This document shows, in pieces, positions 10,274 to 55,346 of a stretch of 64,000 nt of DNA. Made by a program: the position numbers and the translations under genes. The stretch is from Escherichia coli (lineage in GTDB: Bacteria > Pseudomonadota > Gammaproteobacteria > Enterobacterales > Enterobacteriaceae), in assembly GCF_051903065.1 (NCBI RefSeq), contig NZ_CP178438.1; one strand, given 5' to 3'. Position 1 is the stretch's first letter. The number at the start of each line of letters is the position of its first letter. The notes under the pieces are model-generated. The model did no database searches, was not told the origin of the DNA, and saw only the letters and a program-made list of their open reading frames with translations.

Positions 10274-10482
10274 AAATTACCGACGACCTCTGAAGTTATC
10301 CTGACGTTTTACAGGCTTTGTATTAAGAAACTATTAAGCCTGTGAGATATTATTTTTACAGGTGAGAGAGTCACTTCAGGGTAGAGAGATAATGAGAGCA
10401 GCTATATAAGAGATCAGCACAATTACGAACTCTTTATTACACTGACAGGATTTTACATATTTAACAGATTATCCTCAGATAA

Positions 10483-10504
10483 AAGGGCTGGAATACCAGC
10501 CCTT
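10483..10504 (-). terminator. Rho-independent terminator of the kbl-tdh operon
   Basis: Hairpin gggctgg-aatac-cagccc, followed on the minus strand by a T-run, immediately 3' of the tdh stop. Confidence 0.6.
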
Positions 10505-10511
10505 GTTCGTG

Positions 10512-11537: not shown

Positions 11538-11546
11538 TTCACATCC

Positions 11547-12743: not shown

Positions 12744-12956
12744 TGCGATTCTCCAGACAGGGCAAATTCCAGCACATATTACCCAAACTTATAGGTCGCG
12801 ACGAGATGACGCGTTAACACTTCTGCAAAATTCAGGATAAATAACGTCCATCAATCTCACTTTTGGCGAATGGCTGAAGCCAACGCCGTGTAGTGATATG
12901 ATAGAAGTATTCGTGTCTGAGATTGTCTCTGACTCCATAATTCGAAGGTTACAGTT

Positions 12957-13889
12957 ATGATCATCGTTACCGGCGGCGCGGGCTTTATCGGCAGCAACAT
13001 CGTTAAGGCCCTGAATGATAAAGGCATCACCGATATTCTGGTGGTGGACAATCTGAAAGACGGCACCAAGTTTGTGAACCTGGTGGATCTGGATATCGCG
13101 GACTATATGGATAAGGAAGACTTCCTGATCCAGATTATGGCTGGCGAAGAGTTCGGCGATGTCGAAGCGATTTTCCACGAAGGCGCGTGCTCTTCCACCA
13201 CCGAGTGGGATGGCAAGTATATGATGGATAACAACTATCAATACTCCAAAGAGCTGCTGCACTACTGTCTGGAGCGCGAAATCCCGTTCCTGTATGCCTC
13301 TTCCGCAGCCACCTACGGCGGACGCACCTCCGACTTTATTGAATCCCGCGAGTACGAAAAACCGTTGAACGTCTACGGTTACTCAAAATTCCTGTTTGAT
13401 GAATATGTTCGCCAAATCCTGCCTGAAGCGAACTCGCAGATTGTTGGCTTCCGCTATTTCAACGTTTATGGACCGCGTGAAGGCCATAAAGGCAGCATGG
13501 CGAGCGTCGCTTTCCATCTCAACACCCAGCTTAACAACGGTGAATCACCGAAGCTGTTTGAAGGTAGCGAGAACTTCAAACGCGACTTCGTCTATGTGGG
13601 CGACGTGGCTGATGTGAATCTGTGGTTCCTGGAAAATGGCGTTTCCGGCATCTTCAACCTCGGTACTGGTCGTGCGGAATCCTTCCAGGCTGTAGCTGAT
13701 GCTACGCTGGCTTATCACAAGAAAGGCCAGATCGAATACATTCCGTTCCCGGATAAACTGAAAGGCCGCTATCAGGCGTTCACTCAGGCAGATCTGACAA
13801 ATCTGCGCGCGGCGGGTTACGACAAACCGTTCAAAACCGTTGCTGAAGGTGTAACGGAATACATGGCCTGGCTGAATCGCGACGCATAA
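12957..13889 (+). CDS. hldD: ADP-L-glycero-D-manno-heptose 6-epimerase
   Basis: 310-aa [26 protein letters not shown]...; SDR/NAD-binding GxxGxxG. Confidence 0.95.
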
Positions 13890-13898
13890 GAGCTCTGC

Positions 13899-14945
13899 AT
13901 GAAAATACTGGTGATCGGCCCGTCTTGGGTTGGCGACATGATGATGTCGCAAAGTCTCTATCGCACGCTCCAGGCGCGCTATCCCCAGGCGATAATCGAC
14001 GTGATGGCACCGGCATGGTGCCGTCCGTTATTGTCGCGGATGCCGGAAGTTAACGAAGCCATTCCTATGCCGCTTGGTCACGGGGCGCTGGAAATTGGCG
14101 AACGCCGCAAGCTGGGTCATAGCCTGCGTGAAAAGCGCTACGACCGCGCCTACGTCTTACCTAACTCCTTCAAATCCGCATTAGTGCCTTTCTTCGCGGG
14201 TATTCCTCATCGCACCGGCTGGCGCGGCGAGATGCGCTACGGTTTACTCAACGATGTACGTGTGCTCGATAAAGAAGCCTGGCCGCTAATGGTGGAACGC
14301 TATGTGGCGCTGGCCTATGACAAAGGCGTGATGCGTACCGCACAAGATCTACCAAAACCGTTGTTATGGCCGCAATTGCAAGTGAGCGAAGGTGAAAAAT
14401 CATATACCTGTAATCAATTTTCGCTTTCATCAGAACGTCCGATGATTGGTTTTTGCCCGGGTGCGGAGTTTGGTCCGGCAAAACGCTGGCCACACTACCA
14501 CTATGCGGAACTGGCAAAGCAGCTGATTGATGAAGGTTATCAGGTGGTTCTGTTTGGCTCGGCGAAAGATCATGAAGCGGGCAATGAGATTCTTGCCGCT
14601 TTAAATACCGAGCAGCAGGCATGGTGTCGGAACCTGGCGGGGGAAACACAGCTTGATCAAGCGGTTATCCTGATTGCAGCCTGTAAAGCCATTGTCACTA
14701 ACGATTCTGGCCTGATGCACGTTGCGGCGGCGCTCAATCGTCCGCTGGTTGCCCTGTATGGTCCAAGTAGCCCGGACTTCACACCGCCGCTATCACATAA
14801 AGCGCGCGTGATCCGCCTGATTACCGGCTATCACAAAGTGCGTAAAGGTGACGCTGCGGAGGGTTATCACCAGAGCTTAATCGACATTACTCCCCAGCGC
14901 GTACTGGAAGAACTCAACGCGCTATTGTTACAAGAGGAAGCCTGA
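13899..14945 (+). CDS. waaF: ADP-heptose:LPS heptosyltransferase II (GT9)
   Basis: 348-aa ORF MKILVIGPSWVGDMMMSQSLYRTL...; GT9 family. Confidence 0.93.
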   Translation: MKILVIGPSWVGDMMMSQSLYRTLQARYPQAIIDVMAPAWCRPLLSRMPEVNEAIPMPLGHGALEIGERRKLGHSLREKRYDRAYVLPNSFKSALVPFFAGIPHRTGWRGEMRYGLLNDVRVLDKEAWPLMVERYVALAYDKGVMRTAQDLPKPLLWPQLQVSEGEKSYTCNQFSLSSERPMIGFCPGAEFGPAKRWPHYHYAELAKQLIDEGYQVVLFGSAKDHEAGNEILAALNTEQQAWCRNLAGETQLDQAVILIAACKAIVTNDSGLMHVAAALNRPLVALYGPSSPDFTPPLSHKARVIRLITGYHKVRKGDAAEGYHQSLIDITPQRVLEELNALLLQEEA

Positions 14946-14948
14946 CGG

Positions 14949-15905
14949 ATGCGGGTTTTGATCGTTAAAACATCGTCGATGGGCGATGTACTCCATACGT
15001 TGCCCGCACTCACTGATGCCCAGCAGGCAATCCCAGGGATTAAGTTTGACTGGGTGGTGGAAGAAGGGTTCGCACAGATTCCTTCCTGGCACGCCGCCGT
15101 TGAGCGAGTTATTCCTGTGGCAATACGTCGCTGGCGTAAAGCCTGGTTCTCGGCCCCCATAAAAGCGGAACGCAAAGCGTTTCGTGAAGCGCTACAAGCA
15201 GAGAACTATGACGCAGTTATCGATGCTCAGGGGCTGGTAAAAAGCGCGGCGCTGGTGACGCGTCTGGCGCATGGCGTAAAGCATGGAATGGACTGGCAAA
15301 CCGCTCGCGAACCTTTAGCCAGCCTGTTTTACAATCGTAAACATCATATTGCAAAACAGCAGCACGCCGTAGAACGCATCCGCGAACTTTTTGCCAAAAG
15401 TCTGGGCTATAGCAAACCGCAAACCCAGGGCGATTATGCTATCGCACAGCATTTTCTGACGAACCTGCCTACAGATGCTGGCGAATATGCCGTATTTCTT
15501 CATGCGACGACCCGTGATGATAAACACTGGCCGGAAGAACACTGGCGAGAATTGATTGGTTTACTGGCAGATTCAGGGATTCGCATTAAACTTCCGTGGG
15601 GTGCGCCGCATGAGGAAAAACGGGCGAAACGACTGGCGGAAGGATTTGCTTATGTTGAAGTATTGCCGAAGATGAGTCTGGAAGGTGTTGCCCGTGTGCT
15701 GGCCGGAGCGAAATTCGTGGTATCGGTAGACACTGGGTTAAGTCATTTAACTGCAGCACTGGATAGACCGAATATCACGGTTTATGGACCAACCGATCCG
15801 GGATTAATTGGTGGGTATGGGAAGAATCAGGTGGTTTGTAGGGCGCCAGATAAAGATCTTTCTCATCTGACTGCAGAAGCGGTATTTAATAAAATCAATT
15901 CCTGA
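14949..15905 (+). CDS. waaC: ADP-heptose:LPS heptosyltransferase I (GT9)
   Basis: 318-aa ORF MRVLIVKTSSMGDVLHTLPALTDAQQAIPGIKFDWVVEEGF...; GT9 family. Confidence 0.93.
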   Translation: MRVLIVKTSSMGDVLHTLPALTDAQQAIPGIKFDWVVEEGFAQIPSWHAAVERVIPVAIRRWRKAWFSAPIKAERKAFREALQAENYDAVIDAQGLVKSAALVTRLAHGVKHGMDWQTAREPLASLFYNRKHHIAKQQHAVERIRELFAKSLGYSKPQTQGDYAIAQHFLTNLPTDAGEYAVFLHATTRDDKHWPEEHWRELIGLLADSGIRIKLPWGAPHEEKRAKRLAEGFAYVEVLPKMSLEGVARVLAGAKFVVSVDTGLSHLTAALDRPNITVYGPTDPGLIGGYGKNQVVCRAPDKDLSHLTAEAVFNKINS

Positions 15906-15943
15906 TTAATACGTTCTATATTATTTAAGATGGTGGAGAAGCA

Positions 15944-17161
15944 ATGTTAACAGCCTCGCTGGCGCTACGTAATAAAGAAAGCTGGAAACCGTACTGGAAT
16001 AAAACGTTGGTATTCCTCTTTATTGCAACCTTTTTCCTTGATGGTATTACCCGTTATAAACACATCATATCCATACTAATGATTATTACGGTAATCTATC
16101 AAGTTTCTCGTGCTCCAGGAACATTTAAAGTACTCTATAAAAATAATCTTTTTTATAGTGTCCTGGTACTATCATTCATTCTTTTATATGCTACTTTCAT
16201 ATCACCTGATCTGAAAATCAGTTTTAAAGAATTCAGTAATACGGTGCTTAAAGGATTTTTGGCCTATAGTTTACTTATACCTGCATTATTAAAAGATGAA
16301 GATAATGAAAGCATTGGTAAAATTGTACTATACTCATTAGTTACCGGACTTGGCTTACGTTGTCTTGTTGAACTTATTCTTTATATTCAAGATTATAATA
16401 AAGGAATAATGCCATTTTCCACCTATGAACACCGTAGTATTTCCGATTCAATGGTGTTTCTGTTTCCAGCATTATTAAACCTTTGGCTTATCAAGAAAAC
16501 CTCTTATAAAATAGCATTCGTAATTTTTAGTGCAGTTTTCTTATTTCTGCTATTAGGAACGCTGTCTCGTGGTGCATGGCTGGCAGTATTCATAGTGACT
16601 CTGCTATGGTTAATCTTAAATCGTCAGTGGAAATTATTGATGCTGACTTCCATCGTTATTTCTGTTGCCGCAGCGGGTGTATTTACCTATAAAAGTGATC
16701 ATACCGGTAAAGACAGGCTTATTTATAAACTTCAACAGACCGACAGTTCTTATCGCTATACCAATGGTACACAAGGTACGGCGTGGACATTAATTATGGA
16801 AAATCCGCTTAAGGGATATGGCTACGGCGATGATATTTACCATGCAATATATAATAAGCGTGTCGTAGATTTTCCGTCATGGACATTCAGGCAATCAATT
16901 GGACCACACAACATTGTTTTGTCAATTTGGTTTGCAGCAGGTTTAGCTGGACTACTCGCTTTACTTTATCTGTATGGCTCTATTATCAAAGAGACAGCTA
17001 ATGCAACGTTTAAAACAGTTGTCGTCACTCCTTATAATGGTCAATTACTACTATTTTTAACGCTTGTAAGCTTTTATATTATTCGAGGTAACTTCGAGGA
17101 AGTTGATCTCAAACCAATTGGCTTGATTGTTGGTTTACTGTTAGCAATGCGGAATAAATAA
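15944..17161 (+). CDS. waaL: O-antigen ligase (Wzy_C family polytopic membrane protein)
   Basis: 405-aa, low-GC, highly hydrophobic ORF at the end of the hldD-waaFC operon. The sequence differs from the K-12 WaaL as I recall it; the start codon is uncertain. Confidence 0.8.
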   Translation: MLTASLALRNKESWKPYWNKTLVFLFIATFFLDGITRYKHIISILMIITVIYQVSRAPGTFKVLYKNNLFYSVLVLSFILLYATFISPDLKISFKEFSNTVLKGFLAYSLLIPALLKDEDNESIGKIVLYSLVTGLGLRCLVELILYIQDYNKGIMPFSTYEHRSISDSMVFLFPALLNLWLIKKTSYKIAFVIFSAVFLFLLLGTLSRGAWLAVFIVTLLWLILNRQWKLLMLTSIVISVAAAGVFTYKSDHTGKDRLIYKLQQTDSSYRYTNGTQGTAWTLIMENPLKGYGYGDDIYHAIYNKRVVDFPSWTFRQSIGPHNIVLSIWFAAGLAGLLALLYLYGSIIKETANATFKTVVVTPYNGQLLLFLTLVSFYIIRGNFEEVDLKPIGLIVGLLLAMRNK

Positions 17162-17167
17162 AAAAAA

Positions 17168-17197
17168 GCCTGCCTGACATTAAGTTCAGGCAGGCTC
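17168..17197. terminator. Bidirectional Rho-independent terminator between convergent waaL and the waaQ operon
   Basis: Perfect hairpin gcctgcctgac-attaagt-tcaggcaggc, preceded by an A-run and followed by T-rich sequence. Confidence 0.75.
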
Positions 17198-17214
17198 TTC
17201 AAATCCAATAATTT

Positions 17215-18357
17215 TTAACCAAACCAGTCTTGTATTTGTGCTTCAAAACGCTGAGTAACATGTTCCCAGCTATATTTTGAGAAAACAAAATTTCGGGCAT
17301 TTTTAGCAATTTGAGCTCTGTCAGCATCCGCCAAAACTCGCTTAATATCCGCGAGAATACTTTCAGATGTCATAGGCTCTGCAAGGTGATAGCCTGTAAT
17401 TCCTTCCAGAACAAACTCACTAATTCCACCTTTTTGACTGGCAAGTACTGGTTTACCTGCCGCCATCGCTTCAACAGCTACCATACAAAAAGCTTCTTCT
17501 ACCTGAGAAGGAACAACAACTAAATCTGCTAAACGGTAATAGTTATGCATCTGCTCTGGAGGCTGTCCACCCGCCATAATGCATTGCGCTCCAATAGCTT
17601 TCGCTGCATCCAGAACTTTTTTCTGATATTCAGCTTTTTCGCCTTTTTTACTGGCAAAAGGATCTCCGACAATCACCAGTTTGAGGTTATCTTGTATCTT
17701 ATTCAGCTGATTAAAAGCCTCCATAAGCATCAGGCAACCTTTATCTGGTGATATCCTTCCTGCAAATAATAACACGGTATCATTTGCATCAATGTTCAGT
17801 TTCTGCCTCAAATCTTCAGTATTATTTTGTTCATACGATTCAGAACAAAAACCATTAGGCACAATAGCAATATTTGCATCAGGCATTTTTTCCGAATAGA
17901 AATCGAAAAGAAACTGGCTAGGAACAATTATCTTTGCATTTTTGTCTAACTCACCTGGCTCGAAAGCATTATGAAGATGCATAACTAGCTGCGCCTGAGG
18001 GCTTCTGCTACGAATCTGTTTATACAGCTTCATGCTATTGTGGATAACAATAACAGAGTCTTTCGGATCAGTGTTTTTAGGTTGGGTATTTAAAATACGC
18101 TGAGAATATGGCACAGGATCAAGTCGAGTCCACTTTTGGAAAAGTCGTTTATAGACTCGACTAAAACCAATGTAGTGAATATCACAGTGATCATTTACTT
18201 TTGTGTAGGTTGGGTAACCTTCGTTTCGAATACAGGCGATAGTTACTGGAATCGAAAGTCTTTTTGCGACCTGATAAATCCATGTTTCAACCGCTGCAGC
18301 TCCTTTTGGCGGTATAGAAAATATTGGTGTGACGGTAAATATTATTTTTTTAATCAT
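17215..18357 (-). CDS. waaK: GT4-family glycosyltransferase, terminal outer-core transferase (WaaK-like, putative GlcNAc transferase)
   Basis: ORF 17215-18405; likely start MIKKIIFTVTPIF... (about 380 aa); C-terminal GT4 motif EAFCMVAVEAMAAGKPVLASQKGGISEFVLEGITGY. K-12 has a GT9 heptosyltransferase (WaaU) at this position, so the core type here is not K-12. Confidence 0.7.
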   Translation of the reverse strand: MIKKIIFTVTPIFSIPPKGAAAVETWIYQVAKRLSIPVTIACIRNEGYPTYTKVNDHCDIHYIGFSRVYKRLFQKWTRLDPVPYSQRILNTQPKNTDPKDSVIVIHNSMKLYKQIRSRSPQAQLVMHLHNAFEPGELDKNAKIIVPSQFLFDFYSEKMPDANIAIVPNGFCSESYEQNNTEDLRQKLNIDANDTVLLFAGRISPDKGCLMLMEAFNQLNKIQDNLKLVIVGDPFASKKGEKAEYQKKVLDAAKAIGAQCIMAGGQPPEQMHNYYRLADLVVVPSQVEEAFCMVAVEAMAAGKPVLASQKGGISEFVLEGITGYHLAEPMTSESILADIKRVLADADRAQIAKNARNFVFSKYSWEHVTQRFEAQIQDWFG

Positions 18358-18409
18358 TATTAGCCAACTCCAATATAATTTATAACACGTAATAAACACA
18401 TACAAAATA

Positions 18410-19219
18410 TTAGCTTATTTTTTCATAAACACACGGCTCTTCAATTTCGGATATTTTCATATAGGGAATAATATCATATTGAATTGCAGTATCGTCGGAT
18501 AAATTATAAATATTGATATCTTCTATATTTTCACGCATAAAACGGAAAAATGGTAAAATTTTGAATAAATCCCGAGTCAACTCTGAGGGCATAGGATTCT
18601 TATCTTCATCATAGAAACGCGAACAGCTACCCGTTAAATCAAGGCCTGAACAGATAATACGAGCATACTTCAGCGAATAGGCTATTTGGATTGCAGCAAA
18701 AGCAACGGTATGGCATGAACAATAACCGAGGTTAATATCCTTGCAAAAGCCAACCAGACGACCTTTTTTAGAAAAAGGTACAGAGATCAGGAGCTCTTTA
18801 TGAATTCGGCTCAAAATATTAAACTTGATCTTCTTGATCAATCCACCTTTTTCTCTGCGGTAAAATGAACGTAGTACCAGGCAGTTTTGAAGGATGTACC
18901 GCTTATCTTCTTCAGAAGCATGTTCATAAACGTCAACATTTACGATGGTATAACGACTTCTCTGGCTAAATTTATAAAAATCATCACGCCGTTGATGTAA
19001 AAAGCGAACATCGGTAAGTACATAAATATAGGGAATAATATTATGACTTAATAGATATTGTGCAGAACCATTGACAGCAATAACATCCCTTGTCTGCAGC
19101 ACTGACAATGGTGTTTTTTGCGATGTGGGGCCGGAAAGAAAAATAATAACATCATCAGCCGTTTTACTTTCTATCAGGTTTTCAACATCTTTTTTGTCAA
19201 TGTATCTAATATTCTTCAT
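18410..19219 (-). CDS. waaZ: LPS core biosynthesis protein WaaZ (KDO transferase-like)
   Basis: 269-aa low-GC ORF in the conserved waaY-waaZ position; assignment is by synteny more than motif. Confidence 0.65.
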   Translation of the reverse strand: MKNIRYIDKKDVENLIESKTADDVIIFLSGPTSQKTPLSVLQTRDVIAVNGSAQYLLSHNIIPYIYVLTDVRFLHQRRDDFYKFSQRSRYTIVNVDVYEHASEEDKRYILQNCLVLRSFYRREKGGLIKKIKFNILSRIHKELLISVPFSKKGRLVGFCKDINLGYCSCHTVAFAAIQIAYSLKYARIICSGLDLTGSCSRFYDEDKNPMPSELTRDLFKILPFFRFMRENIEDINIYNLSDDTAIQYDIIPYMKISEIEEPCVYEKIS

Positions 19220-19290
19220 GATAAACCTGTGAAATAAGAACTCCGCATAGAAATGTCCTGACGAAGACGTTTAAATGTAAGACTTTTACT

Positions 19291-19989
19291 TTATCGTGCT
19301 GGCTTCCCTTTCAAACGCCGCATAAGATTACGTATTTTTTTACGATAAACTAAAAGATAATAACCGAGATCTTTAACCTCATTCTTAATACCATAATGTC
19401 GCTCTAAATCAATACGATCTTTCGCTTTACGTTGTGCAGATGCCCGTTTTCCTGAAAGATCAATAATGCGTACTTCACCATTTTCAATAATAAAATTACC
19501 GCGGTGAGGATCACCAGATACCATACCGTGTTCGTGTAATGAACGAATTGATTGTTGAATTTTATTTTTTAGCGAATCATCAATATCGGGGATATCACAC
19601 AACTCTACGCCATCGATATATTCGATAAGCATGATATAAGTATGGACAAAACGTAATGTTTTCCGTTCTGCCAACAAATAAAAATCATTGAGAGAATGTA
19701 GCCCCTCGTTACGCACTTTTTGAGTTTGCTCAAAAAGGCGTTCATAATAATCTCCCTTTAAAAGAGATTTAAAGAAACGTTCGTTGCGTTTTACTTTAGG
19801 CGAAAAAACTTTAAGTATCAATTTACCGTAATCGGTATCAATAAGCATGACTTTTGTATCATCTATAGAACGAAAAACTTTGATGATATTAATATCATAA
19901 GAAAGAAAGTCATTTAATACATTGAGATACTTTGAGTTATTTTCATCGGTAAAAACAACTAAATCTTTGATTTTATTCTTCTGAATCAT
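19291..19989 (-). CDS. waaY: LPS core heptose(II) kinase
   Basis: 232-aa ORF with kinase-like HRGN motif (SGDPHRGNFI); position between waaZ and waaJ. Confidence 0.8.
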   Translation of the reverse strand: MIQKNKIKDLVVFTDENNSKYLNVLNDFLSYDINIIKVFRSIDDTKVMLIDTDYGKLILKVFSPKVKRNERFFKSLLKGDYYERLFEQTQKVRNEGLHSLNDFYLLAERKTLRFVHTYIMLIEYIDGVELCDIPDIDDSLKNKIQQSIRSLHEHGMVSGDPHRGNFIIENGEVRIIDLSGKRASAQRKAKDRIDLERHYGIKNEVKDLGYYLLVYRKKIRNLMRRLKGKPAR

Positions 19990-20006
19990 GTTAAACCAGT
20001 TAAATG

Positions 20007-21023
20007 TTATTTACGGTAATATTTTCGGCAAAGATAACACACTCCTGCAATGAGTCCTGAGATATAATGATGTTGCACTAACAGATGTTTATATCTTTTT
20101 TTGAATTCAATAATTGATTTTGCATCTCGTGGTGAGTCATCTTTCCAGGGGGATCTTTCTAAAGCTATTTTATAGTATTTTACCGATGGATAAATTGCCC
20201 ATTTGTGCCACGGCTTGGTGGCCCCAGTATAATGAATAAGAAGAGTATCCTCTTTTATCAACTCTTTATATTTTTGATGCGTTTTATCTTTTAACTCACT
20301 TTTTATTGTATATATAGTATTGAACTCACGTGGCAGGAATATTGTCATCCCTTTTAGTAGGACATTCATAACGTCCTGGTCAGGATACTTATAAATACTA
20401 TCTTTACTCATAAGAATAGACAGTGCTTTTTCGGTTAGTTTTGCTTCTGTCCATTTTTTTAGGTCTAAGTAAACGACACCAGAATTAAAATACTGCCCCC
20501 GAAGTTCAGGATCAGATAATCTGACTACCGCCTTTTCCTGCATTGGGTCTACATCCCTGACTACTGCAGCCACCGCTCCATTAAACTCTAAATGCAATAG
20601 TTGACTAATATCTCCCTTACAAACTACATCTGCATCAAGATAAAGCAAACGATCAAGAGTTAAACCCAATAATTGAAATGCAAATAAACGGAAGTACATT
20701 GCTCTTGACCAGACCTGTGTACAAGGCAAGCACTGGAGCTTATCAGTGTTAATTCTATATAACGTGATTCTTAATTGGTATTGCTCTGCAAGCTTTGCAA
20801 CTTTTTGAAAAAAAGCATCATTATAAACATCAGCAATAATATAAAAATCAAGATTAATATGTCGATTATTTAGGACAATTGATGTGATGGAAACACCTAC
20901 ACCATCAAGATAATTAGCATCGACACCATAGGCAACATTTAAACATTCACAAGTATTTATATTAGCCAGCCGAAAATCCCAGGCTTTAACTTTATCTATC
21001 TCTATGGCAGGAAATGAGTCCAC
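20007..21023 (-). CDS. waaJ: GT8-family LPS outer-core 1,2-glycosyltransferase
   Basis: 338-aa ORF with GT8 motifs (YLDADVVC, FNSGVVYLDLKKW, DQDVMNVLL, HYTGATKPW). Confidence 0.8.
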   Translation of the reverse strand: MDSFPAIEIDKVKAWDFRLANINTCECLNVAYGVDANYLDGVGVSITSIVLNNRHINLDFYIIADVYNDAFFQKVAKLAEQYQLRITLYRINTDKLQCLPCTQVWSRAMYFRLFAFQLLGLTLDRLLYLDADVVCKGDISQLLHLEFNGAVAAVVRDVDPMQEKAVVRLSDPELRGQYFNSGVVYLDLKKWTEAKLTEKALSILMSKDSIYKYPDQDVMNVLLKGMTIFLPREFNTIYTIKSELKDKTHQKYKELIKEDTLLIHYTGATKPWHKWAIYPSVKYYKIALERSPWKDDSPRDAKSIIEFKKRYKHLLVQHHYISGLIAGVCYLCRKYYRK

Positions 21024-21062
21024 AATGCTACCCTTATATCATTACTTTATAGTTTCCCAGTT

Positions 21063-22082
21063 TTAATGCTTTATCTTTTCAATAAAATAAAAAAGATAGT
21101 TGCTAAACCCTTTTAGATATCTATGTTTTTTAAGCATATGTTTTGCGCTATATCTTAATTGATTGCTATTATTCGGTTTCAGCAACGCCGTATTCTTCCA
21201 TGGCGAAGCATTTTTTGCCTCCATAAATGCTTGTGATACAGGATAATCCCAGGCCCAATCATGCCAGGGCTTGGTTGGCCCGATATAATGGATAAAAATA
21301 GTATCGTTGGTAATTGGGTTTATAAAGTTATCTTTTAGTTGATAATTTAAGCTAAACTGGGTGTTATATTTAATATCAGCGAAAATAAGTTTATCTGCCA
21401 GCAACATATTTAATACATCCTGATCAGGATGTGTTATTTTTTTGATTATTTCTGGCTCATTTAGCATTGCAATGGCTCGTGTAGAAACCTGCTGAGCCGC
21501 CCATTTGGCAGTATTAATCAATAAAAAACCGGAGTTAAAGTAACCTTTAGCAATTCCCGCAACACCTAACGAATGGGCGCGTTTTTCCCACCAGTCAGCT
21601 TGCCCTTCAGAAACAACCATTGCGACTTTATCGTCAGGAAATGAGAATTTAATTAGTGGCTCAATAGTCCCCTGACAAATGATATCTGCATCCAGATAAA
21701 GGACTTTAGCCGCCTTATTAATAAAGTAATCTGCAATAACAAAACGGAAATATATTGCATGAGTCCAGTTCTTTGTGCTAGGCAATGAGCGTAGTCGGTC
21801 ACCATTAATCAGATATATTTTTATTCTGGTTTTATACTGTAACGCTAGGGCATCAAAATACTTACGATCATCATCACCAAAATAATCAGTAAAAATGTGG
21901 AAACACAACCGACTTCCTTCATTATACTTTAATATTGAAGCAATCGAAATTCCGCAACCAAATAGAAAGTTTTTGTCAGTTCCATAAGCGATGTCCAGAC
22001 AAAGATTTTCCGTTTCTACTTTATGATTATAATCAATAACTGAATTTAGAAACTCAGTTTCCTGGAATAATACCTGCTGCAT
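21063..22082 (-). CDS. waaI: GT8-family LPS outer-core 1,3-glycosyltransferase
   Basis: 339-aa ORF with GT8 motifs (YLDADIIC, FNSGFLLINTAKW, DQDVLNMLL, HYIGPTKPW); also known as waaO. Confidence 0.8.
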   Translation of the reverse strand: MQQVLFQETEFLNSVIDYNHKVETENLCLDIAYGTDKNFLFGCGISIASILKYNEGSRLCFHIFTDYFGDDDRKYFDALALQYKTRIKIYLINGDRLRSLPSTKNWTHAIYFRFVIADYFINKAAKVLYLDADIICQGTIEPLIKFSFPDDKVAMVVSEGQADWWEKRAHSLGVAGIAKGYFNSGFLLINTAKWAAQQVSTRAIAMLNEPEIIKKITHPDQDVLNMLLADKLIFADIKYNTQFSLNYQLKDNFINPITNDTIFIHYIGPTKPWHDWAWDYPVSQAFMEAKNASPWKNTALLKPNNSNQLRYSAKHMLKKHRYLKGFSNYLFYFIEKIKH

Positions 22083-23161
22083 TATTTCCTCCGGGAAATA
22101 GCAGAAATAATTATATTATGTAATCTATCGTAATACTTCAATTGATAAAACTTATCGATCGACGCAGGAATTTTTTCATGTTCGATATGAATTTCACCTG
22201 CTATATATTTATTTAGAAGAGTTACAAAACCAGCAATATCTCCCGGTTGATACAGATGGCCATTGACATCAGATTGAATAATGTCAGCAGGCCCGGAGAC
22301 ACAATCGGCACTAATACAAGGAATCCCCCATGATAAGGCTTCAAGCAGGGTCATTGGGAAACCTTCAAAAGATGACGTGAGCAGTAACGCACTCACTTTT
22401 TTAATATCTTGCTGGACCAATTCCCAGGGATGTTGTTGCCAACCATACCAGTCAATTCGATTATCAATATTTAGTTCTCTACTATAAGCCTGGCATTTTT
22501 CGAAATCGGAACCATCACCCAATACATGGAGTTTCCAGTTACCTTGCGCTTGTGATAAGCCATCAAACAGGTCTTTAACCCTCTTCTGGCCTTCAAATTT
22601 CATACGCCCAACATAAATGAATGTTGCCGTTTCGCCTTCCCCGGGTGCAGGAATGACTGAATTTTTCGCCTCGACGGGATTAAAAATAACGTTTATTGTC
22701 GATTCTGGTACACCCCGGCTAATCATTTGCCGTTTAATACCAGAGCTGATGGCTAAATGATAGTCGGCACAGGTGATATATTCAGCATGTTTTTTATGAT
22801 CTAAAGAAAAATGCGGCCATGAAAATACAGGTACATCAATCCCCGATTTTTTACGAGCTTTGGACGCATACAAACACGAGATCACGTCAATACAAATAAC
22901 AACATCTGGCTGATAATCCTGAAGCCATTTGCTTAAAGCATGAATATGTTTCGCGCGACGCAAAAAACCTAAGCGAATATTGGAAAATGAACAAGAGTAC
23001 TTAATATCTTCCAGCCACCCCTTATCCATTTTGTCATTACGACAAAAGAAAAACATTTCACTTTGGATATGTTGTTGCCTGAAGGTAGTAATAACATCAC
23101 GAATGACTGTTTCCATGCCGCCAAAACCAGAAACAGCTTCGCCAATAAAGGCTATTTTCAT
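22082..23161 (-). CDS. waaB: GT4-family LPS 1,6-galactosyltransferase
   Basis: 359-aa ORF MKIAFIGEAVSGFGGMETV... with C-terminal GT4 motif SSFEGFPMTLLEALSWGIPCIS. Confidence 0.85.
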   Translation of the reverse strand: MKIAFIGEAVSGFGGMETVIRDVITTFRQQHIQSEMFFFCRNDKMDKGWLEDIKYSCSFSNIRLGFLRRAKHIHALSKWLQDYQPDVVICIDVISCLYASKARKKSGIDVPVFSWPHFSLDHKKHAEYITCADYHLAISSGIKRQMISRGVPESTINVIFNPVEAKNSVIPAPGEGETATFIYVGRMKFEGQKRVKDLFDGLSQAQGNWKLHVLGDGSDFEKCQAYSRELNIDNRIDWYGWQQHPWELVQQDIKKVSALLLTSSFEGFPMTLLEALSWGIPCISADCVSGPADIIQSDVNGHLYQPGDIAGFVTLLNKYIAGEIHIEHEKIPASIDKFYQLKYYDRLHNIIISAISRRK

Positions 23162-23174
23162 AATTACATTCCAG

Positions 23175-24155
23175 CTAAATATTTAAGCAAAACAATTTAA
23201 CAAGTAAATACTTATAATAATAAGAAATGGCTTTCCAATATTTTCCTTCTAACCAAAAAACTTTAGACTTTAACCTAATCTCACTTGATGATGGAGCTAG
23301 TTTTCTTTTATAGTTCTTCCATGGGGAATTTGAAAAATAATGATCAAAATTTTGCGCTCTAAATATTTTGTACCATGGTTTATTCGGAGTTACATAATGC
23401 ATTATAATTGTGTTTGGCAAGTTTTTTTGCTCTTCATCACATCGTACTGACAATGTTGTCTTATTATTGTACTTGTTATTAAGGTAATGTACTCGTCCAT
23501 TAAGTAAAATATTAAGCACATCCTGATCTGCATATCTATATACTTTCCCACTGTTGATCATCTCTAAAGCTTTTTGTGTTATATTATGTTTTTTCCATGC
23601 GCTGGTATTAATAAGCATAACCCCGGCATTAAAATAATCCACAAACTCAATGCCATAATCTAATTTTTTTACACGTTCTTGCATTTCTGGTGAGTCTGGA
23701 ATTACACATGCAATATTAGCATTTAAATTATAATCAACCAGTTCATCTAAATGGCTATTACATATGACATCACAGTCAAGATAAAGTATATTATTTATTT
23801 TATCATCAATAACTTCTGGGATTAAGAAACGTAAACATGTTGATAAAGGAATACCAAGAACTAATGTATCCGGATTAATGTCAAATTTATCAGTTATATA
23901 ATATACAGATATTGATGTATGAGGACCTTCTAGCTCGTAAAAAGCTGAACACTCTTTTTCTTCTATGCCTGATATAAGAAGGTGAAAATGAAGGTTAATA
24001 TGACTATTGTTGGATATAATTGAATATAATGCAACGCCTGCTGGCATTATGAATTCATAATCAAAGCATAGTGCAATATGTAAATGTTTAACATATGACA
24101 GTTCGTTTTGGAATAAATCTTGCCTCTTAGCAACGAAATTTCTATATTTCAACAA
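23175..24155 (-). CDS. GT8-like glycosyltransferase occupying the waaS position (very AT-rich)
   Basis: 326-aa ORF with GT8 motifs (YLDCDVICN, FNAGVMLINTSAW, DQDVLNILL, HYVTPNKPW), between waaP and waaB. I cannot confirm from memory whether it is orthologous to K-12 WaaS. Confidence 0.6.
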   Translation of the reverse strand: MLKYRNFVAKRQDLFQNELSYVKHLHIALCFDYEFIMPAGVALYSIISNNSHINLHFHLLISGIEEKECSAFYELEGPHTSISVYYITDKFDINPDTLVLGIPLSTCLRFLIPEVIDDKINNILYLDCDVICNSHLDELVDYNLNANIACVIPDSPEMQERVKKLDYGIEFVDYFNAGVMLINTSAWKKHNITQKALEMINSGKVYRYADQDVLNILLNGRVHYLNNKYNNKTTLSVRCDEEQKNLPNTIIMHYVTPNKPWYKIFRAQNFDHYFSNSPWKNYKRKLAPSSSEIRLKSKVFWLEGKYWKAISYYYKYLLVKLFCLNI

Positions 24156-24187
24156 TTTTAGAATCCCTTACTGTAATAAAATATTAT

Positions 24188-24985
24188 TTACAAGTTTTTT
24201 CTTATTGTTCTTTCTTCTATTTTTTTTGCTTTAATTTTTGCCTTTTTAAGTAAATCAGTCTCAAGTTTAAAAATATCGCGTAAAGGCATCCCAAAATAAA
24301 CCTTCATAAATCGCCAGATATCTCTCTGCGTCAGACCAATATTCATTGATGAGAAATACAAACCAATCAAATCTTTATCGCGCCAACGACGTGGAACGCG
24401 CGTGCGAAGCTGCGCCCGGTGCAGGTCAATTACCGAAATTTTTAACTCCTCTTCCTTACCGGAAAAAGGCAAGTGCAGCAGGAAATGACAGATATAACAG
24501 TCACGGTGGTTAATGCCCGCAGCATGCATATCGCGCACCATCGTCGCGACACGCTTAATAAGCATACGCTTTACGCGAACATCTGGTGGGTTGGTCGCCC
24601 AGTCAGCACAGTAATCTTCCAGACTGATGGTTGGTGTCAGATCTTCGGTAATAATAAATGAAGTTCTGGTCAGCGGATTCATGCCTTTTTCGCCAAATGC
24701 CACCCCATACATAGTATCAACGCCGACATCCCGCAGTCGATGAATCGCATTCCATTCGCGGTCTGCGCCTAATACTGGCATCCGCAATGAGAGTAAATTT
24801 TTGATTATCTCTTTCAGAGTCGTGCCGCGATGCCATTTGAGAAAATAGCTTTTGCCCGCCATTTCAAAGCGCAGAGTACGGCGAGTTTCCAGTTCACGAA
24901 ATACCTCACCCTGCAAGGTTTTAACTTCCTCAAAAGGATCTTTACCGCGCCATAACGTGGCAAACGGCTCTTTAAGTTCAACCAT
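24188..24985 (-). CDS. waaP: LPS core heptose(I) kinase
   Basis: Likely start [21 protein letters not shown]...; kinase-like fold; conserved position. Confidence 0.9.
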
Positions 24986-26102
24986 CCAGACCACCCGTTA
25001 TGATATCCGCCGCTTTCTCTGGCAGACTGTATAAATCTTGTGTATCAGCATAATGTCGCGCATTTTCCGCCCAGGCCTGGCGCAATGAAGATTGCGTTAA
25101 CGCTTTGCGTAAAATCTCATTCAATGTTTCCTGGCGGAATGGCTCAGCAATAGCCTCGCCGCAATTGGCGTCGACAATATAATGCGCATAGCCGCAAACG
25201 GCAGTTGTTAGTACCGGTAATCCTGCAGTAATCGCTTCCAGCAGCACAATTCCCGCCGCTTCCTGGTAGGCAGGATGCAGTAATAAATCCGCCGCCGCCA
25301 TTAATTCCGAGACATCGTTGCGCCCCGAGAAGAAGTGAACATTACTGCGCACGCCGCGTTTTTCTGCCAGTGCCTCAAATTTTCGCGGTTTATCCTGCCC
25401 AACAACATATAGCAATGTGTTGTGGCGCAGCGAATCCGGTAACGAAGCAAGTGCTTCAATGGAACGATCGACACCTTTACGCGTGAAGTCTGAACCGACC
25501 TGCAACAATAAATATTGTTGTTCGGTTATTCCATTCTTCTTACGGAAGATTTCACGGCTATTGGCTGGCTGCTGGCTATATTTACGATCAGGATAAATCC
25601 CCGGTGGCAGAATATGAAAACGCTCCACTTCAGTCTGATAATGTTTCTGGAAATCGGCGATTTGCTTATCTGTCAGCATCAGCAGCTGTGTCGGCTTGCC
25701 CTGTTCGAAGGTTGCCCGCTCAAAGGCGGCATAATGGCGATAACGTGACGTCAGGCGATAGAAAAAGCCTTTTTCCTGCGCTACTTTCTCGGCATAACAA
25801 ACATCAGCGGCATAATAAACGTCCAGCCCCGGCATTTTATTAAATCCAACGACTTTATCGACGGGATGTTCGCGTAAATGTTTTTGCACCCAGGCAAAAT
25901 ACTCCGCATTGCGCCCGTGATTGGTATGCGATTTAACCGGCACTTTGATCAGTTCAAATACATCAGGGCATTCGCCTTCCCACGACTGGGCATAAACCCG
26001 AACATGATGACCTCGGGCGGCGACTGTCTGAGCAATACGCATAAAATCGCGCTGCAAACCGCCAAAGGGAAAATATTTATATAAACAAAAAGCAACGATC
26101 AT
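24978..26102 (-). CDS. waaG: LPS glucosyltransferase I (GT4)
   Basis: 374-aa [40 protein letters not shown]...; GT4. Confidence 0.93.
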
Positions 26103-27157
26103 AACGACGTACCTGTCGTGGAGGAGGGCAGTAATTTATCGACAGCAGCAATGACATCTGCCGCCGGAATAACCGAAAGATACATCTCATTTCGGTCACG
26201 CTGATCGCGCGTTGGCATTTCCCGGTAATCTCCCGCCCAGAATTGAATCATGTTATTTGACCAGGGACGCCAGAAAATATGATCTGTTGCGCCAAACAGC
26301 GATATCAGCGGCGTATTAACTGCAGCGGCAATATGCGCCGGTGCGGAATCAACGCCAATAAACAGCTGCGCATGATCGATTAACGCACCAAGTTCCGGGA
26401 AGGTCACCTTTCCAGCCAGCGCCGTTACTGGTGGCGTCTGGCATCCCTGCGCAATTTCATTGACGCAGGCCAGATCGTCTTTATCTGGGCCGGACGTCAG
26501 AACGACTTCATAACCACGAGCATGTAAGGCATCAATCACAGCGGAAAACTTGGCGTTGTCCCAGCATTTGAAGATTTGCCGCGCCGTAGGTTGGATAACC
26601 ACATAATTTTGTCCAACACCAGCGTGATCAAGTTCGCGACGCATACGTTTCCAGCTTGCAGGCGGGTAACTCATGGTTGTCTGCTTCACCAACGAATCAA
26701 GTCCCAATGGCGTCAGCACGGATAAGTTACTTTCCACCACATTTCCACCCTGCAACGGCACCAAATGGGTGAAACTATTACGCCAAAAAGCAGACTGCCG
26801 ATGATGATAATCCTGGGAAATTTTCACACGGGCATTTAATAAGCGAACCAGTATAGCAACCATCCATTGATCGGTAAGATTGACGATAAGGTCATACTTA
26901 TTGGCACGTAATACCTTGATGAGATGAAAAAAGTTGGCAATTTTTTCTGAGGCTTTTGCTTTTTTATTTTTTATGCCGTAGAGCGCGTTAATCTCTGGAT
27001 TTTCAGACAGGATCGGGATGGTGTCCTGATAAAGCAGCACATCGATTTTTGCGTCAGGGTAATTTTTTTTCAGCGAACTAATGACGGGAGTAGTTAATAA
27101 CATATCCCCATGAAAACGCATCTTAATGAGCAAAATTCTTCGAAATGGCTTATCCAC
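26099..27157 (-). CDS. waaQ: LPS heptosyltransferase III (GT9)
   Basis: 352-aa ORF MDKPFRRILLIKMRFHGDMLLTTPVISSLKKNYPDAKIDVL...; GT9; first gene of the long core operon. Confidence 0.9.
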   Translation of the reverse strand: MDKPFRRILLIKMRFHGDMLLTTPVISSLKKNYPDAKIDVLLYQDTIPILSENPEINALYGIKNKKAKASEKIANFFHLIKVLRANKYDLIVNLTDQWMVAILVRLLNARVKISQDYHHRQSAFWRNSFTHLVPLQGGNVVESNLSVLTPLGLDSLVKQTTMSYPPASWKRMRRELDHAGVGQNYVVIQPTARQIFKCWDNAKFSAVIDALHARGYEVVLTSGPDKDDLACVNEIAQGCQTPPVTALAGKVTFPELGALIDHAQLFIGVDSAPAHIAAAVNTPLISLFGATDHIFWRPWSNNMIQFWAGDYREMPTRDQRDRNEMYLSVIPAADVIAAVDKLLPSSTTGTSL

Positions 27158-27206
27158 AAGTAACTCTTTTTGTTGAGATTATCCGATTAAGGTGAAGCAG
27201 AAAAAG

Positions 27207-27245
27207 CACGCTACCGCCCCAGGCTCAACAGCTACCTGAATACTG
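27207..27245 (-). promoter_or_regulatory. JUMPstart element with ops site (GGCGGTAGCGTG) in the waaQ operon leader (RfaH-dependent antitermination)
   Basis: Minus strand reads cagtattcaggtagctgttgagcctggggcggtagcgtg; the 12-nt ops consensus is exact at 27207-27218 (forward cacgctaccgcc). Confidence 0.85.
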
Positions 27246-27569
27246 ATACCGCACTGATATTGACGCGCTAGTGTATCACTTCTTTCGCGGCAATCCGACC
27301 CGAATGATTTTTAAGCACATTGTTGATTTTCAATAAAGAAATCAATCAAATAAAATCATTAGCAACCATATTCTTTCACTGTTGCTCTGCGATTCCTTCC
27401 TGCACGTACAGCAGAAATCAATGAATCGCATAAAAATACAAAAAAAGTATAGATGTTCAGCAAGAATTGGCGGGTAAATTGCTATTTAAGTCAAAAACGG
27501 GAAAAGTAATGGTAATGCCACAGCTAAATACATAGAATCCCCAGCACATCCATAAGTCAGCTATTTACT

Positions 27570-29334
<1,765 letters not shown>

Positions 29335-55251: not shown

Positions 55252-55346
55252 GGAAGATCGTCGTCTCCGGTGAGGCGGCTGGACTTCAAATCCAGTTGGG
55301 GCCGCCAGCGGTCCCGGGCAGGTTCGACTCCTGTGATCTTCCGCCA
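55252..55346 (+). tRNA. selC: tRNA-Sec (selenocysteine, anticodon UCA)
   Basis: 95-nt sequence ggaagatcgtcgtctccggtgaggcggctggacttcaaatccagttggggccgccagcggtcccgggcaggttcgactcctgtgatcttccgcca, with long variable arm, UCA anticodon and encoded CCA. Confidence 0.95.

Follow-up and report, generated by a model that had tools for sequence, protein, structure and literature searches.

A recombinant waa (rfa) locus of Escherichia coli that very probably specifies an R2-type lipopolysaccharide core

Introduction

The R2 outer core of Escherichia coli is an already-known system, and the roles of its enzymes reportedly go back, together with work on K-12, to Heinrichs et al. 1998 and the R2 strain F632. 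JUMPstart/ops leaders are sites at which RfaH-dependent antitermination acts, and in Salmonella the WaaI enzyme makes a galactose residue of the core backbone. The composition of the R2 core has been given as Glc3-GlcNAc-Gal-Hep3-Kdo (PMC7504096). The name wabA is given in PMC13293308, where R2 typing primers are also published (Table 2, with a 610-bp product), and low GC content, without remnants of mobile elements, has been reported for all five core types (PMC8715443).

Here, we describe the corresponding region in a window of 64,000 nucleotides from the E. coli contig NZ_CP178438.1. Gene annotation was taken from PGAP on a record that differs at two positions from nucleotides 1 to 50000 of the window. 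As judged from homology, from which both the core structure and the enzyme roles are inferred, this is very probably the chromosomal waa (rfa) locus, mosaic in its makeup and specifying lipopolysaccharide of the R2 outer-core type. It is an ordinary R2 locus except that known alleles are combined in it in a rare recombinant arrangement.

Results

Gene content and core type. The genes and elements of the locus, with their predicted roles, are as follows.

12957 to 13889, plus strand: hldD (rfaD), ADP-heptose epimerase, opening the hldD-waaF-waaC-waaL operon (open reading frame, PGAP)
13899 to 14945, plus strand: waaF, heptosyltransferase II (99.1% amino acid identity to K-12)
14949 to 15905, plus strand: waaC, heptosyltransferase I, chimeric (mismatch maps)
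15944 to 17161, plus strand: waaL, O-antigen ligase, R2/Salmonella type (NF012031, Pfam, identities)
17163 to 17200, minus strand: terminator-like GC-rich hairpin and T-tract where waaL and waaK converge (consensus scan)
17215 to 18357, minus strand: waaK, GT4 UDP-GlcNAc:(glucosyl)LPS alpha-1,2-GlcNAc transferase, final gene of the waaQ operon
18264 to 18873: in silico R2 typing amplicon (waaK-waaZ), 610 bp
18410 to 19219, minus strand: waaZ, KdoIII transferase (NF007333, 548.8 bits)
19291 to 19989, minus strand: waaY, HepII kinase (NF007684, 396.8 bits)
20007 to 21023, minus strand: waaJ (= waaR), GT8 alpha-1,2-glucosyltransferase (GlcIII), chimeric (Pfam GT8 and GT8C)
21063 to 22082, minus strand: waaO (old name rfaI), GT8 alpha-1,3-glucosyltransferase (GlcII), K-12-like allele
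22082 to 23161, minus strand: waaB, GT4 alpha-1,6-galactosyltransferase (NF007396, 600.4 bits)
23175 to 24155, minus strand: wabA, R2-specific GT8 glycosyltransferase, divergent allele (Pfam GT8 and GT8C)
24188 to 24985, minus strand: waaP, HepI kinase, majority (R1/R3/R4-like) allele (NF011703, 475 bits)
24978 to 26102, minus strand: waaG, GT4 glucosyltransferase I (GlcI), majority allele
26099 to 27157, minus strand: waaQ, heptosyltransferase III, majority allele, first in the long operon (NF007742, 713.6 bits)
27207 to 27245, minus strand: JUMPstart element of the waaQ leader, containing the ops sequence GGCGGTAGCGTG (Rfam RF01707)

The variable block, 15944 to 24155, runs from the start codon of waaL on the plus strand to the start of the GT8 gene on the minus strand, so that the interval spans waaL, then waaK-waaZ-waaY-waaJ(R)-waaO-waaB-wabA on the opposite strand. 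It is bounded by hldD-waaF-waaC on one side and by waaP-waaG-waaQ on the other, and open reading frames and annotation agree with the gene order claimed by a sequence-only reading of this DNA (waaQ-G-P-GT8-B-O(I)-J(R)-Y-Z-GT4, with waaL after hldD-waaF-waaC).

Every gene that separates R2 from K-12 is of the R2 type, namely, waaK, the R2 waaL, and wabA where K-12 has waaS, and tblastn across the whole window found no K-12 WaaL, WaaU, or WaaS at an E value of ≤1e-3. In an in silico search, the published R2 primers match exactly at 18264 to 18284 and 18853 to 18873 and delimit a product of the published size, while the published K-12 forward typing primer has no match; this is the core-type PCR check that had been suggested. 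Strain MB53, 99.9% identical across the locus, is typed as plain R2 in the data published with LPSTyper. The R2 gene set occurs in 502 of 5,426 complete E. coli genomes (about 9%). The earlier claim of a non-K-12 outer core with a WaaK-like GT4 enzyme and a variant ligase is thus borne out by identities, protein families, primers, and the typing of MB53.

The ligase and the terminal transferase. WaaL matches the NCBIfam model NF012031 (RfaL) with 651.6 bits (cutoff, 277), a profile with which K-12 WaaL gives no match, and Pfam Wzy_C is also found. It shares 97.8% of its amino acids with the common R2 ligase, 67% with that of Salmonella enterica subsp. diarizonae, and only 23.8% with K-12 WaaL, so the ligase is indeed unlike that of K-12, as had been suspected. 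WaaK matches NF012028 (LPS N-acetylglucosaminyltransferase) with 724.8 bits (cutoff, 618) and PF00534 (1.4e-40), and is 99.5% identical to the common R2 protein and 73% identical to that of S. enterica diarizonae. K-12 WaaU is a GT9 protein (PF01075) without a match to NF012028 in the profile search, and its global identity to WaaK is 19.9%; the long operon ends, as proposed, with a GT4 gene that is WaaK-like. Neither the terminal product nor the ligase is closest to its K-12 counterpart. The start of waaK is annotated at 18357, and the longest open reading frame begins at a TTG codon at 18405. About 490 genomes have the common R2 allele of WaaK/WaaL. The hairpin between the two genes (a stem of 15 pairs, 7 of them GC, in the consensus scan) is a predicted terminator.

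The GT8 gene wabA. This gene, noted earlier only as "GT8-like," occupies the slot held by waaS in K-12. Its product is 91.7% identical to the common R2 protein and 22% identical to K-12 WaaS, and among the 502 genomes with wabA, 16 have it at an identity of at least 99%. An alignment with LgtC shows that the DXD, NAGV, DQD, and HY..P.KPW motifs are conserved, and WabA is apparently an intact retaining GT8 enzyme. The published R2 composition is already covered by the transferases other than WabA.

Other genes of the two operons. Amino acid identities to R2 and K-12, respectively, are 99.3% and 85.5% for WaaZ and 97.8% and 93.1% for WaaY, while WaaB is 93 to 94% identical to both alike. WaaO is closest to K-12 (97.1%), with lower values against the common R2 allele (85.8%) and the WaaI homolog of Salmonella (55%). 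The conserved end carries a different allele: WaaP is 85% identical to K-12, 88% to the common R2 protein, and 95% to R4 strain C9; WaaG, 90% to K-12 and 99% to C9 (77 to 81% to K-12 and common R2 and 99 to 100% to R4 at the DNA level); and WaaQ, 71.5% to K-12 and 99% to C9. This waaQGP allele is at least 95% identical in 4,469 genomes and 60 to 80% identical in 956. Upstream, the JUMPstart element scores 55.2 bits (gathering score, 35) and its ops sequence has a single exact match in the window; we predict that the leader is an RfaH-dependent antitermination site. At the other end of the locus, HldD is 99.7% identical to that of K-12.

GC content. The GC content is 0.31 to 0.39 over about 15.5 to 24.5 kb and 0.50 to 0.55 in the flanks (0.355 for the block, 0.521 for hldD-waaC, and 0.492 for the whole window). 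The block is therefore AT rich relative to its flanks, as the sequence-only reading had it, but low GC is no marker of a non-K-12 core, because the equivalent blocks of K-12 (0.333) and an R4 strain (0.346) are low as well.

Mosaic structure. Identities in 250-bp and 1-kb tiles, crossover maps, amino acid site maps, and population counts divide the locus into three segments.

9001 to 15223: left backbone (waaH, tdh, kbl, hldD, waaF, 5' waaC), compared with strain ET201 in 1-kb tiles
15224 to 20625: R2-type module of about 5.4 kb (3' waaC, waaL, waaK, waaZ, waaY, 3' waaJ)
20631 to 27500: right backbone (5' waaJ, waaO, waaB, wabA, waaP, waaG, waaQ, leader), compared with ET201

The left backbone has 0 to 1 differences per kb from ET201, with a single SNP, at 14603, in the mismatch map, and the right backbone is equally close up to 27000, with 4 differences in its final kb, spanning the boundary at about 27.5 kb. 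Site-by-site maps show sharp crossovers within waaC and waaJ. In waaC, the ET201-type backbone extends to about 15223 and canonical R2-type sequence begins at about 15224 to 15290, the protein being R2 type at informative sites from residue 144 onward. In WaaJ, residues 1 to 138 are backbone/K-12-like and 146 to 338 canonical R2, and the crossover is bracketed at 20604 to 20631. ET201 has a K-12-type module in place of the R2 module, only 85 to 90% identical where alignable. The module is at least 99% identical in 487 genomes, and the 3' waaC allele (15330 to 15860) in 484; at the same threshold, the stretch from 20660 to 24180 recurs in only 17 genomes and the whole combination in only 10 of 5,426, MB53 and 23CRST027 being among these 10. 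The waaQGP end and a number of genes inside the block differ in allelic origin, and we conclude that the locus is mosaic, a feature that the sequence-only reading had not noted.

Discussion

Proposed functioning and origin. Homologous recombination within waaC and waaJ very probably produced the mosaic arrangement, in which the module of about 5.4 kb carries the ligase and the terminal transferase as a coupled pair and the backbone has the species-majority waaQGP, the K-12-like waaO, and the divergent wabA. The waaQ operon would be transcribed from a promoter upstream of the JUMPstart/ops leader, which would let RfaH take RNA polymerase across the AT-rich genes. WaaG would add GlcI to HepII, WaaP and WaaY would phosphorylate HepI and HepII, respectively, and WaaQ would add HepIII, while WaaB would provide the alpha-1,6 Gal branch. 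GlcII would be added by WaaO and GlcIII by WaaJ/R, and WaaK would cap GlcIII with alpha-1,2 GlcNAc; WaaZ would give rise to minor KdoIII glycoforms. The R2-type ligase WaaL, convergent at the end of hldD-waaFC, would require the GlcNAc branch made by WaaK for attachment of the O antigen. The chimeric WaaJ or the WabA protein, which diverges by 8%, may have an altered specificity.

Alternative explanations. The patchwork raises the question of whether the core is a K-12/R2 hybrid as the LPSTyper paper uses the term, i.e., a K-12 set with its terminal genes swapped, perhaps matching neither parent structure. Similar hybrids have already been published (PMC13293308), waaO is K-12-like, and the backbone outside the module is identical to that of strains with waaU and a K-12-type waaL. 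We nevertheless consider this very unlikely, as all the discriminating genes are of the R2 type, the same reaction is credited to the WaaO proteins of K-12 and R2, and the near-identical MB53 is typed as plain R2. The drop in GC from about 0.52, which falls over exactly the variable genes, could also be read as the recent, strain-specific acquisition of a genomic island. We give that reading even less credence, given that the same drop is found in K-12 and R4 and in all five core types (PMC8715443), that the borders, at 15.5 and 24.5 kb, are without an annotated integrase or other mobility gene, IS element, tRNA, or att-like repeat, and that 5,424 of 5,426 genomes have the block at the same, conserved place in the chromosome; the recent event would rather be allelic exchange by homologous recombination.

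The least probable explanation, in our judgment a nearly negligible one, is that a Salmonella-type (Ra) core was imported into E. coli, with a WaaI galactosyltransferase building a Glc-Gal-Glc backbone. WaaK and WaaL do belong to the same families as their Salmonella counterparts, and both NCBIfam and PGAP call the product of 21063 to 22082 a lipopolysaccharide 3-alpha-galactosyltransferase. However, the name does not discriminate, since the model behind it (NF011718) also matches K-12 WaaO, a glucosyltransferase, with 581.8 bits, and the identities of this product, as those of WaaK and WaaL, are far higher to E. coli than to Salmonella. The Salmonella locus examined, that of S. enterica diarizonae, has no wabA homolog, as the only match of WabA there (about 29%) falls under the waaO/I homolog. 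Of the likeness to R2 and Salmonella that had been proposed from the sequence, the R2 part holds and the Salmonella type does not.

Comparison with known systems. Preferring the R2 reading, we find the closest relative in the R2 core-type locus (prototype strain F632, Heinrichs et al. 1998, J Biol Chem 273:8849; ECOR11 in LPSTyper, PMC13293308), which shares the order waaQ-G-P-wabA-B-O-R-Y-Z-K with a convergent waaL. The products of waaL, waaK, waaZ, and waaY are 98 to 99.5% identical to those of the common R2 allele, and the typing amplicon has the same size and exact primer matches. The differences from common R2 are the majority (R1/R3/R4-like) waaQGP, with WaaQ 71% identical to both the common R2 and K-12 alleles, the K-12-like waaO (86%), the divergent WabA, the chimeric WaaJ and WaaC, and the absence of an intergenic element of about 124 bp between waaJ and waaO. 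In F632, the WaaQ, WaaG, and WaaP products are reportedly more than 90% similar to those of K-12 (Heinrichs et al. 1998); by that measure, with 71%, 90%, and 85% identity to K-12, the conserved end studied here departs from canonical R2.

S. enterica subsp. diarizonae CCUG 30040T also has a terminal GT4 WaaK, a ligase of the same family, and the order B-I-J-Y-Z-K plus L, with 55 to 73% protein identity in the outer-core products. K-12 (MG1655 b3619-b3632) has the same architecture, position, and low GC, with WaaO 97% and WaaB, WaaJ, and WaaY 93% identical, but it has waaU (GT9) instead of waaK (GT4), an unrelated waaL (24%), waaS in the place of wabA (22%), htrL upstream of hldD, and a minority waaQGP allele. 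Finally, the R2/K-12 hybrid loci, represented by GF4-3 (PMC13293308) and here by six genomes with the same backbone (ET201, LHM10-1, CP52E, 6EVA, YZLc4-1, and WEC), carry waaU and K-12-type waaL, waaZ, and waaY at the position of our R2 module. ET201 equals the window in 9.0 to 15.2 kb and 20.6 to 27.5 kb, sharing its WabA, WaaP, WaaG, and WaaQ proteins, with near-identical waaO and waaB.

Gene content and core type of the waa locus

By its gene set, the waa (rfa) locus of the window is of the E. coli R2 core type. ORF listing and family scans place the complete locus at 12957-28847, with hldD, waaF, waaC and waaL on the plus strand and, converging on waaL, the minus-strand genes waaQ, waaG, waaP, a GT8 gene (wabA), waaB, waaO (formerly rfaI), waaJ, waaY, waaZ and a GT4 gene (waaK); waaA lies beyond these, also on the plus strand. 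The interval 15944-24155, marked out in the sequence-only reading as a non-K-12 outer-core block, is bounded exactly by the start codons of waaL and the GT8 gene. Over its first 50,000 positions, the window has two differences from E. coli 23CRST027 (NZ_AP045789.1), and the PGAP annotation of that record agrees with the window in genes and coordinates. All genome counts are out of 5,426 complete E. coli genomes in RefSeq, a biased sample. R2 genomes typical of the population and S. enterica subsp. diarizonae served as comparators in place of F632, the R2 prototype strain, and S. Typhimurium LT2. The features on which the argument turns are the following.

17215-18357, minus strand: waaK, GT4 gene, last gene of the waaQ operon
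23175-24155, minus strand: wabA, GT8 gene (PF01501, 3.6e-48, and PF08437)
27207-27245, minus strand: JUMPstart element in the waaQ leader (Rfam RF01707, 55.2 bits; gathering score, 35)

Terminal transferase and ligase

Both family models and identities bear out the suggestion that the end gene is a GT4 transferase like WaaK and not the GT9 WaaU of K-12. Its product matches Pfam Glycos_transf_1 (GT4, PF00534) at 1.4e-40 and NCBIfam NF012028, "lipopolysaccharide N-acetylglucosaminyltransferase," at 724.8 bits (curated cut-off, 618), while the control, K-12 WaaU, is a GT9 protein (PF01075) with no match to NF012028. WaaK is identical at 99.5% of amino acids to the common R2 allele, 73% to the S. 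enterica subsp. diarizonae protein and 19.9% to WaaU. The longest waaK ORF starts with TTG at 18405 (396 aa) and the PGAP start is the ATG at 18357 (380 aa); the NF012028 alignment begins at residue 17 of the longest ORF, and the 380-aa protein from 18357 is likely the product.

WaaL (405 aa) is, as the earlier reading had it, unlike the K-12 ligase: the two are 23.8% identical, and the window protein matches NF012031 (RfaL) at 651.6 bits, a model that K-12 WaaL does not match. The ligase found in common E. coli with waaK is 97.8% identical to it, and that of S. enterica subsp. diarizonae 67%. A tblastn search of the whole 64 kb (E<=1e-3) found none of K-12 WaaL, WaaU and WaaS, so that a best fit of the end gene to K-12 WaaU and of waaL to the K-12 ligase, the outcome that would have spoken against a non-K-12 core, is not what the locus shows. 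The set that defines the K-12 core type (a GT9 waaU for heptosyltransferase IV, K-12 waaL and waaS) is accordingly absent.

Evidence for the R2 assignment

The locus has the terminal waaK, the R2/Salmonella-type WaaL, the order waaQ-G-P-wabA-B-O-R-Y-Z-K with wabA and not waaS (waaR being waaJ), and a positive typing result. In the R2 order of the 2025 LPSTyper paper, "wabA" stands where K-12 has waaS, and the R2 typing primers published there, one in waaK and one in waaZ, amplify 610 bp (PMC13293308). Run in silico, this core-type PCR was positive: the R2 primers match exactly at 18264-18284 and 18853-18873, spanning 610 bp, and the K-12 forward primer matches nowhere in the window even when three mismatches are allowed. 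The locus of strain MB53, classed as R2 in the LPSTyper data (PMC13293308), is 99.9% identical to that of the window. Identities, primers and MB53 all agree with a non-K-12 core of the R2/Salmonella-like kind, as had been proposed. About 9% of complete E. coli genomes carry the R2 gene set. By mass spectrometry, the R2 core is Glc3-GlcNAc-Gal-Hep3-Kdo with a terminal alpha-GlcNAc-(1->2)-alpha-Glc (PMC7504096).

A core of the Salmonella (Ra) type was considered and rejected. It would have a WaaI alpha-1,3-galactosyltransferase ortholog and outer-core products orthologous to those of Salmonella, whereas the product of 21063-22082 shares 97.1% of its residues with K-12 WaaO and 55% with the homolog from Salmonella. 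The NCBIfam/PGAP name of this product is "3-alpha-galactosyltransferase," as the underlying "equivalog" model, NF011718, scores K-12 WaaO, a glucosyltransferase (L003, 12040-13059), above its cut-off at 581.8 bits, and PGAP therefore calls E. coli waaO a galactosyltransferase. Since K-12 WaaO also matches, the name does not discriminate the Salmonella from the E. coli type, and it is an annotation trap for anyone inferring backbone sugars.

The block was also described as AT-rich, and it is, with GC of 0.31-0.39 over ~15.5-24.5 kb and 0.50-0.55 on both sides (mean of 0.355 for the block and 0.521 for hldD-waaC). This is not peculiar to non-K-12 loci, as the equivalent blocks of K-12 and R4 have means of 0.333 and 0.346 and a survey found the same GC trough in all five core types (PMC8715443). 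AT-richness is a general property of the locus and not a trait of its non-K-12 version.

The GT8 gene wabA

WabA belongs to the retaining, LgtC-like GT8 family. In an alignment with LgtC, a GT8 enzyme of solved structure (1GA8/1G9R; E of 6.6e-20), it keeps the DXD (LYLDCDV), YFNAGV (NAGV), DQD and HY..P.KPW motifs. It is unrelated to K-12 WaaS (22% identical), a protein of the WaaS/CpsH family without a Pfam GT8 match. The gene is present in 502 of the 5,426 genomes, about the same number as those in which the whole locus is covered (508). WabA is a conserved GT8 enzyme and, by its motifs, apparently a functional one; because the other enzymes wholly cover the R2 composition, it is the one product of the R2 locus left without an assigned sugar.

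A third wabA allele, 79% identical at the amino acid level, adjoins waaK-type loci in E. coli E69 (L009, 4198-5175) and E. albertii (L010, 4207-5160), and E. whittamii has waaK and an R2-like waaL without wabA. Taken together, these cases mean that wabA assorts independently of waaK/waaL across Escherichia.

Core assembly and regulation

The roles given here are homology assignments from work on K-12 and F632. WaaG would add GlcI and WaaQ HepIII, WaaP and WaaY would phosphorylate HepI and HepII, and WaaB would add the alpha-1,6 Gal, with GlcII and GlcIII predicted to come from WaaO and WaaJ/R and the KdoIII glycoforms from WaaZ. WaaK would then put a terminal alpha-1,2 GlcNAc on GlcIII, after which the R2 WaaL would join the O antigen.

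The JUMPstart element contains the ops sequence GGCGGTAGCGTG, its sole exact occurrence in the window, which places the long waaQ operon among JUMPstart/ops operons. This is the signature of RfaH-dependent antitermination, the predicted mode of control. The Rfam scan of 12-29 kb gave JUMPstart only, and the K-12 sRNA rirA of the waaQ leader was not recovered by it. The 53-bp gap across which waaL and waaK converge holds a putative terminator, a GC-rich hairpin with a T-tract.

Mosaic structure of the locus

The locus, which the sequence-only reading had treated as one block, is a mosaic in its pattern of identities. No single ancestry fits the individual genes: waaL, waaK, waaZ and waaY are 98-99.5% identical (aa) to common R2, while WaaO is closer to K-12 (97.1%) than to common R2 (85.8%), WabA shares 91.7% of its residues with common R2, and WaaP, WaaG and WaaQ are 85%, 90% and 71.5% identical to K-12, with common R2 similarly distant. 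Tiling against reference loci gave sharp switches. At ~9.0-15.22 kb and 20.63-~27.5 kb, the window is identical (0-1 difference/kb) to E. coli ET201, which has wabA together with waaU and K-12-type waaL, waaZ and waaY; the sequence between these segments is common R2, at least 99% identical in 487 genomes. The right crossover lies in waaJ, bracketed at 20604-20631, and the left one in waaC, at ~15224-15290. As the right crossover falls inside waaJ, the encoded WaaJ is chimeric, with residues 1-138 of the backbone (ET201) type and 146-338 of the R2 type, and WaaC is likewise chimeric. About 25 sites in the 3' end of waaC differed from both ET201 and the R2 strain Z1323CEC0014 (L002), at first suggesting a third parent; this was rejected, as the 3' allele of the window is found at >=99% in 484 genomes, making Z1323CEC0014 atypical at this point.

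The whole allele combination is rare, found at >=99% in only 10 of the 5,426 genomes. The backbone at 20660-24180 occurs at >=99% in 17, and six of these carry the waaU/K-12-type module (ET201, LHM10-1, CP52E, 6EVA, YZLc4-1 and WEC), an arrangement of the wabA backbone that has been reported for one strain, GF4-3 (PMC13293308). Six of the 10 R2-ended genomes, the SC516 group, have backbone-type waaC up to ~15770, while the window is R2-type from ~15224. They share the right crossover of the window, so the left boundaries are ~550 bp apart, which implies either a second, small conversion event or another resolution of the same event.

In the ordinary R2 strain RM10410 (L026, 21024-21186), as in common R2 loci, ~124 bp of extra sequence lies between waaJ and waaO, with inverted-repeat-like ends (…AATTCGAGTTGCAGGA … TGCAACTTGAAGTATAACGAGTAT) that resemble an ERIC/IRU repeat. 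The extra sequence is absent from K-12 and from the window, where the gap between the two genes is 21024-21062.

Independence of the waaQGP alleles

The supposedly conserved end of the locus, waaP-waaG-waaQ and the leader (24188-27560 in the window), has two deeply divergent alleles in E. coli. That of the window is the majority one, at least 95% identical in 4,469 complete genomes; it is R1/R3/R4-like and 99-100% identical to an R4-type strain. K-12 and common R2 have the minority allele (956 genomes), with 60-80% DNA identity to the window and ~71% aa identity in WaaQ. Import from another species, to which the 71% identity of WaaQ to K-12 might have pointed, was rejected, as this is the majority E. 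coli allele. The waaQGP allele is not strictly tied to the outer-core type and assorts independently of it, which matters for single-amplicon typing schemes.

This bears on one point at which the window departs from the prototype. Heinrichs et al. (1998), who reportedly worked out the R2 system, are said to have found the remaining F632 products, including WaaQ, WaaG and WaaP, >90% similar to those of K-12, and those of the window are 71.5% (WaaQ), 84.9% (WaaP) and 90.1% (WaaG) identical. The departure concerns the ancestry of the conserved end and not the outer-core chemotype.

Direction of the exchange

Outside ~9.0-27.5 kb, the window and ET201 differ at 3-34 sites/kb (tiles over 50 kb), so the two are not clonal. 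At 33-50 kb, the window is nearly identical (0-2 differences/kb) to RM10410, and the next-best matches to the right flank are many ordinary R2 strains. A simple R2 patch in an ET201-like clone was therefore rejected: the shared segment extends only over ~9.0-27.5 kb and the right flank is R2-strain-like. Two accounts remain, one in which the ET201-type segment was gained first and the terminal module was then swapped for R2 DNA, and one in which a strain of R2 background kept its native R2 module and acquired ET201-type DNA to either side of it. We consider the latter at least as likely and slightly favor it on account of the right flank, nearly identical to that of an ordinary R2 strain, although the best ordinary R2 genomes match the R2 module itself at only 99.2% identity. 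The K-12-type module of ET201 shows 96.2% identity with standard K-12-type loci and 97.6% with GF4-3, and these module divergences indicate a long, tangled history. Under either account, the ligase remains on one tract with the transferase that builds its acceptor, which fits their known functional coupling.

It is improbable, in our estimation, that the rare combination of R2 WaaL/WaaK, chimeric WaaJ, K-12-like WaaO, 8%-diverged WabA and majority WaaQGP makes a core glycoform other than that of F632, for example, one in which WabA supplies an additional alpha-hexose or one at another position. If it does, the 5.4-kb swap between R2 and K-12 type, inside an 18.5-kb segment that is otherwise identical, would be a natural and very recent switch of O-antigen attachment chemistry, one that spreads between unrelated lineages.

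Neighboring regions

Just upstream of the locus, 9239-10273 is waaH (yibD), a GlcUA:HepIII transferase gene; it lies inside the ET201-identical segment of ~9.0-15.2 kb, and the shared recombinant tract thus reaches past the classical waa locus. The kbl-hldD intergenic region (12744-12956) is 213 bp, where K-12 has htrL (yibB); htrL had no tblastn match in the window and is also missing from the R2, R4 and ET201 loci examined. Farther along (55252-58161), tRNA-Sec (selC, 55252-55346) is followed in a near-identical RefSeq record by a truncated tyrosine integrase, a frameshifted IS5 transposase, a DUF4942 fragment and a rhuM fragment. This selC-associated remnant is an eroded, decayed island.

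Comparison with known systems

Core type sets the terminal sugars exposed in rough and semi-rough cells, the site of O-antigen ligation and recognition by phages, antibodies and protist predators, and for this reason the R2 assignment is useful for typing. The R2 type, its genes, its likeness to Salmonella at WaaK/WaaL and the low-GC region are textbook knowledge (PMC8715443; PMC13293308), and several strains in RefSeq have exactly this sequence, one of them already typed as R2. This allele combination and the independence of waaQGP do not seem to be set out explicitly in the published descriptions that we compared. Exchange of core types by homologous recombination, including R2/K-12 hybrids, has already been published (PMC13293308; PMC8715443), and the mosaic is a further instance of this described phenomenon, to which it adds a natural modular exchange in which the ligase and the acceptor-making transferase are found on one 5.4-kb tract with crossovers in waaC and waaJ.
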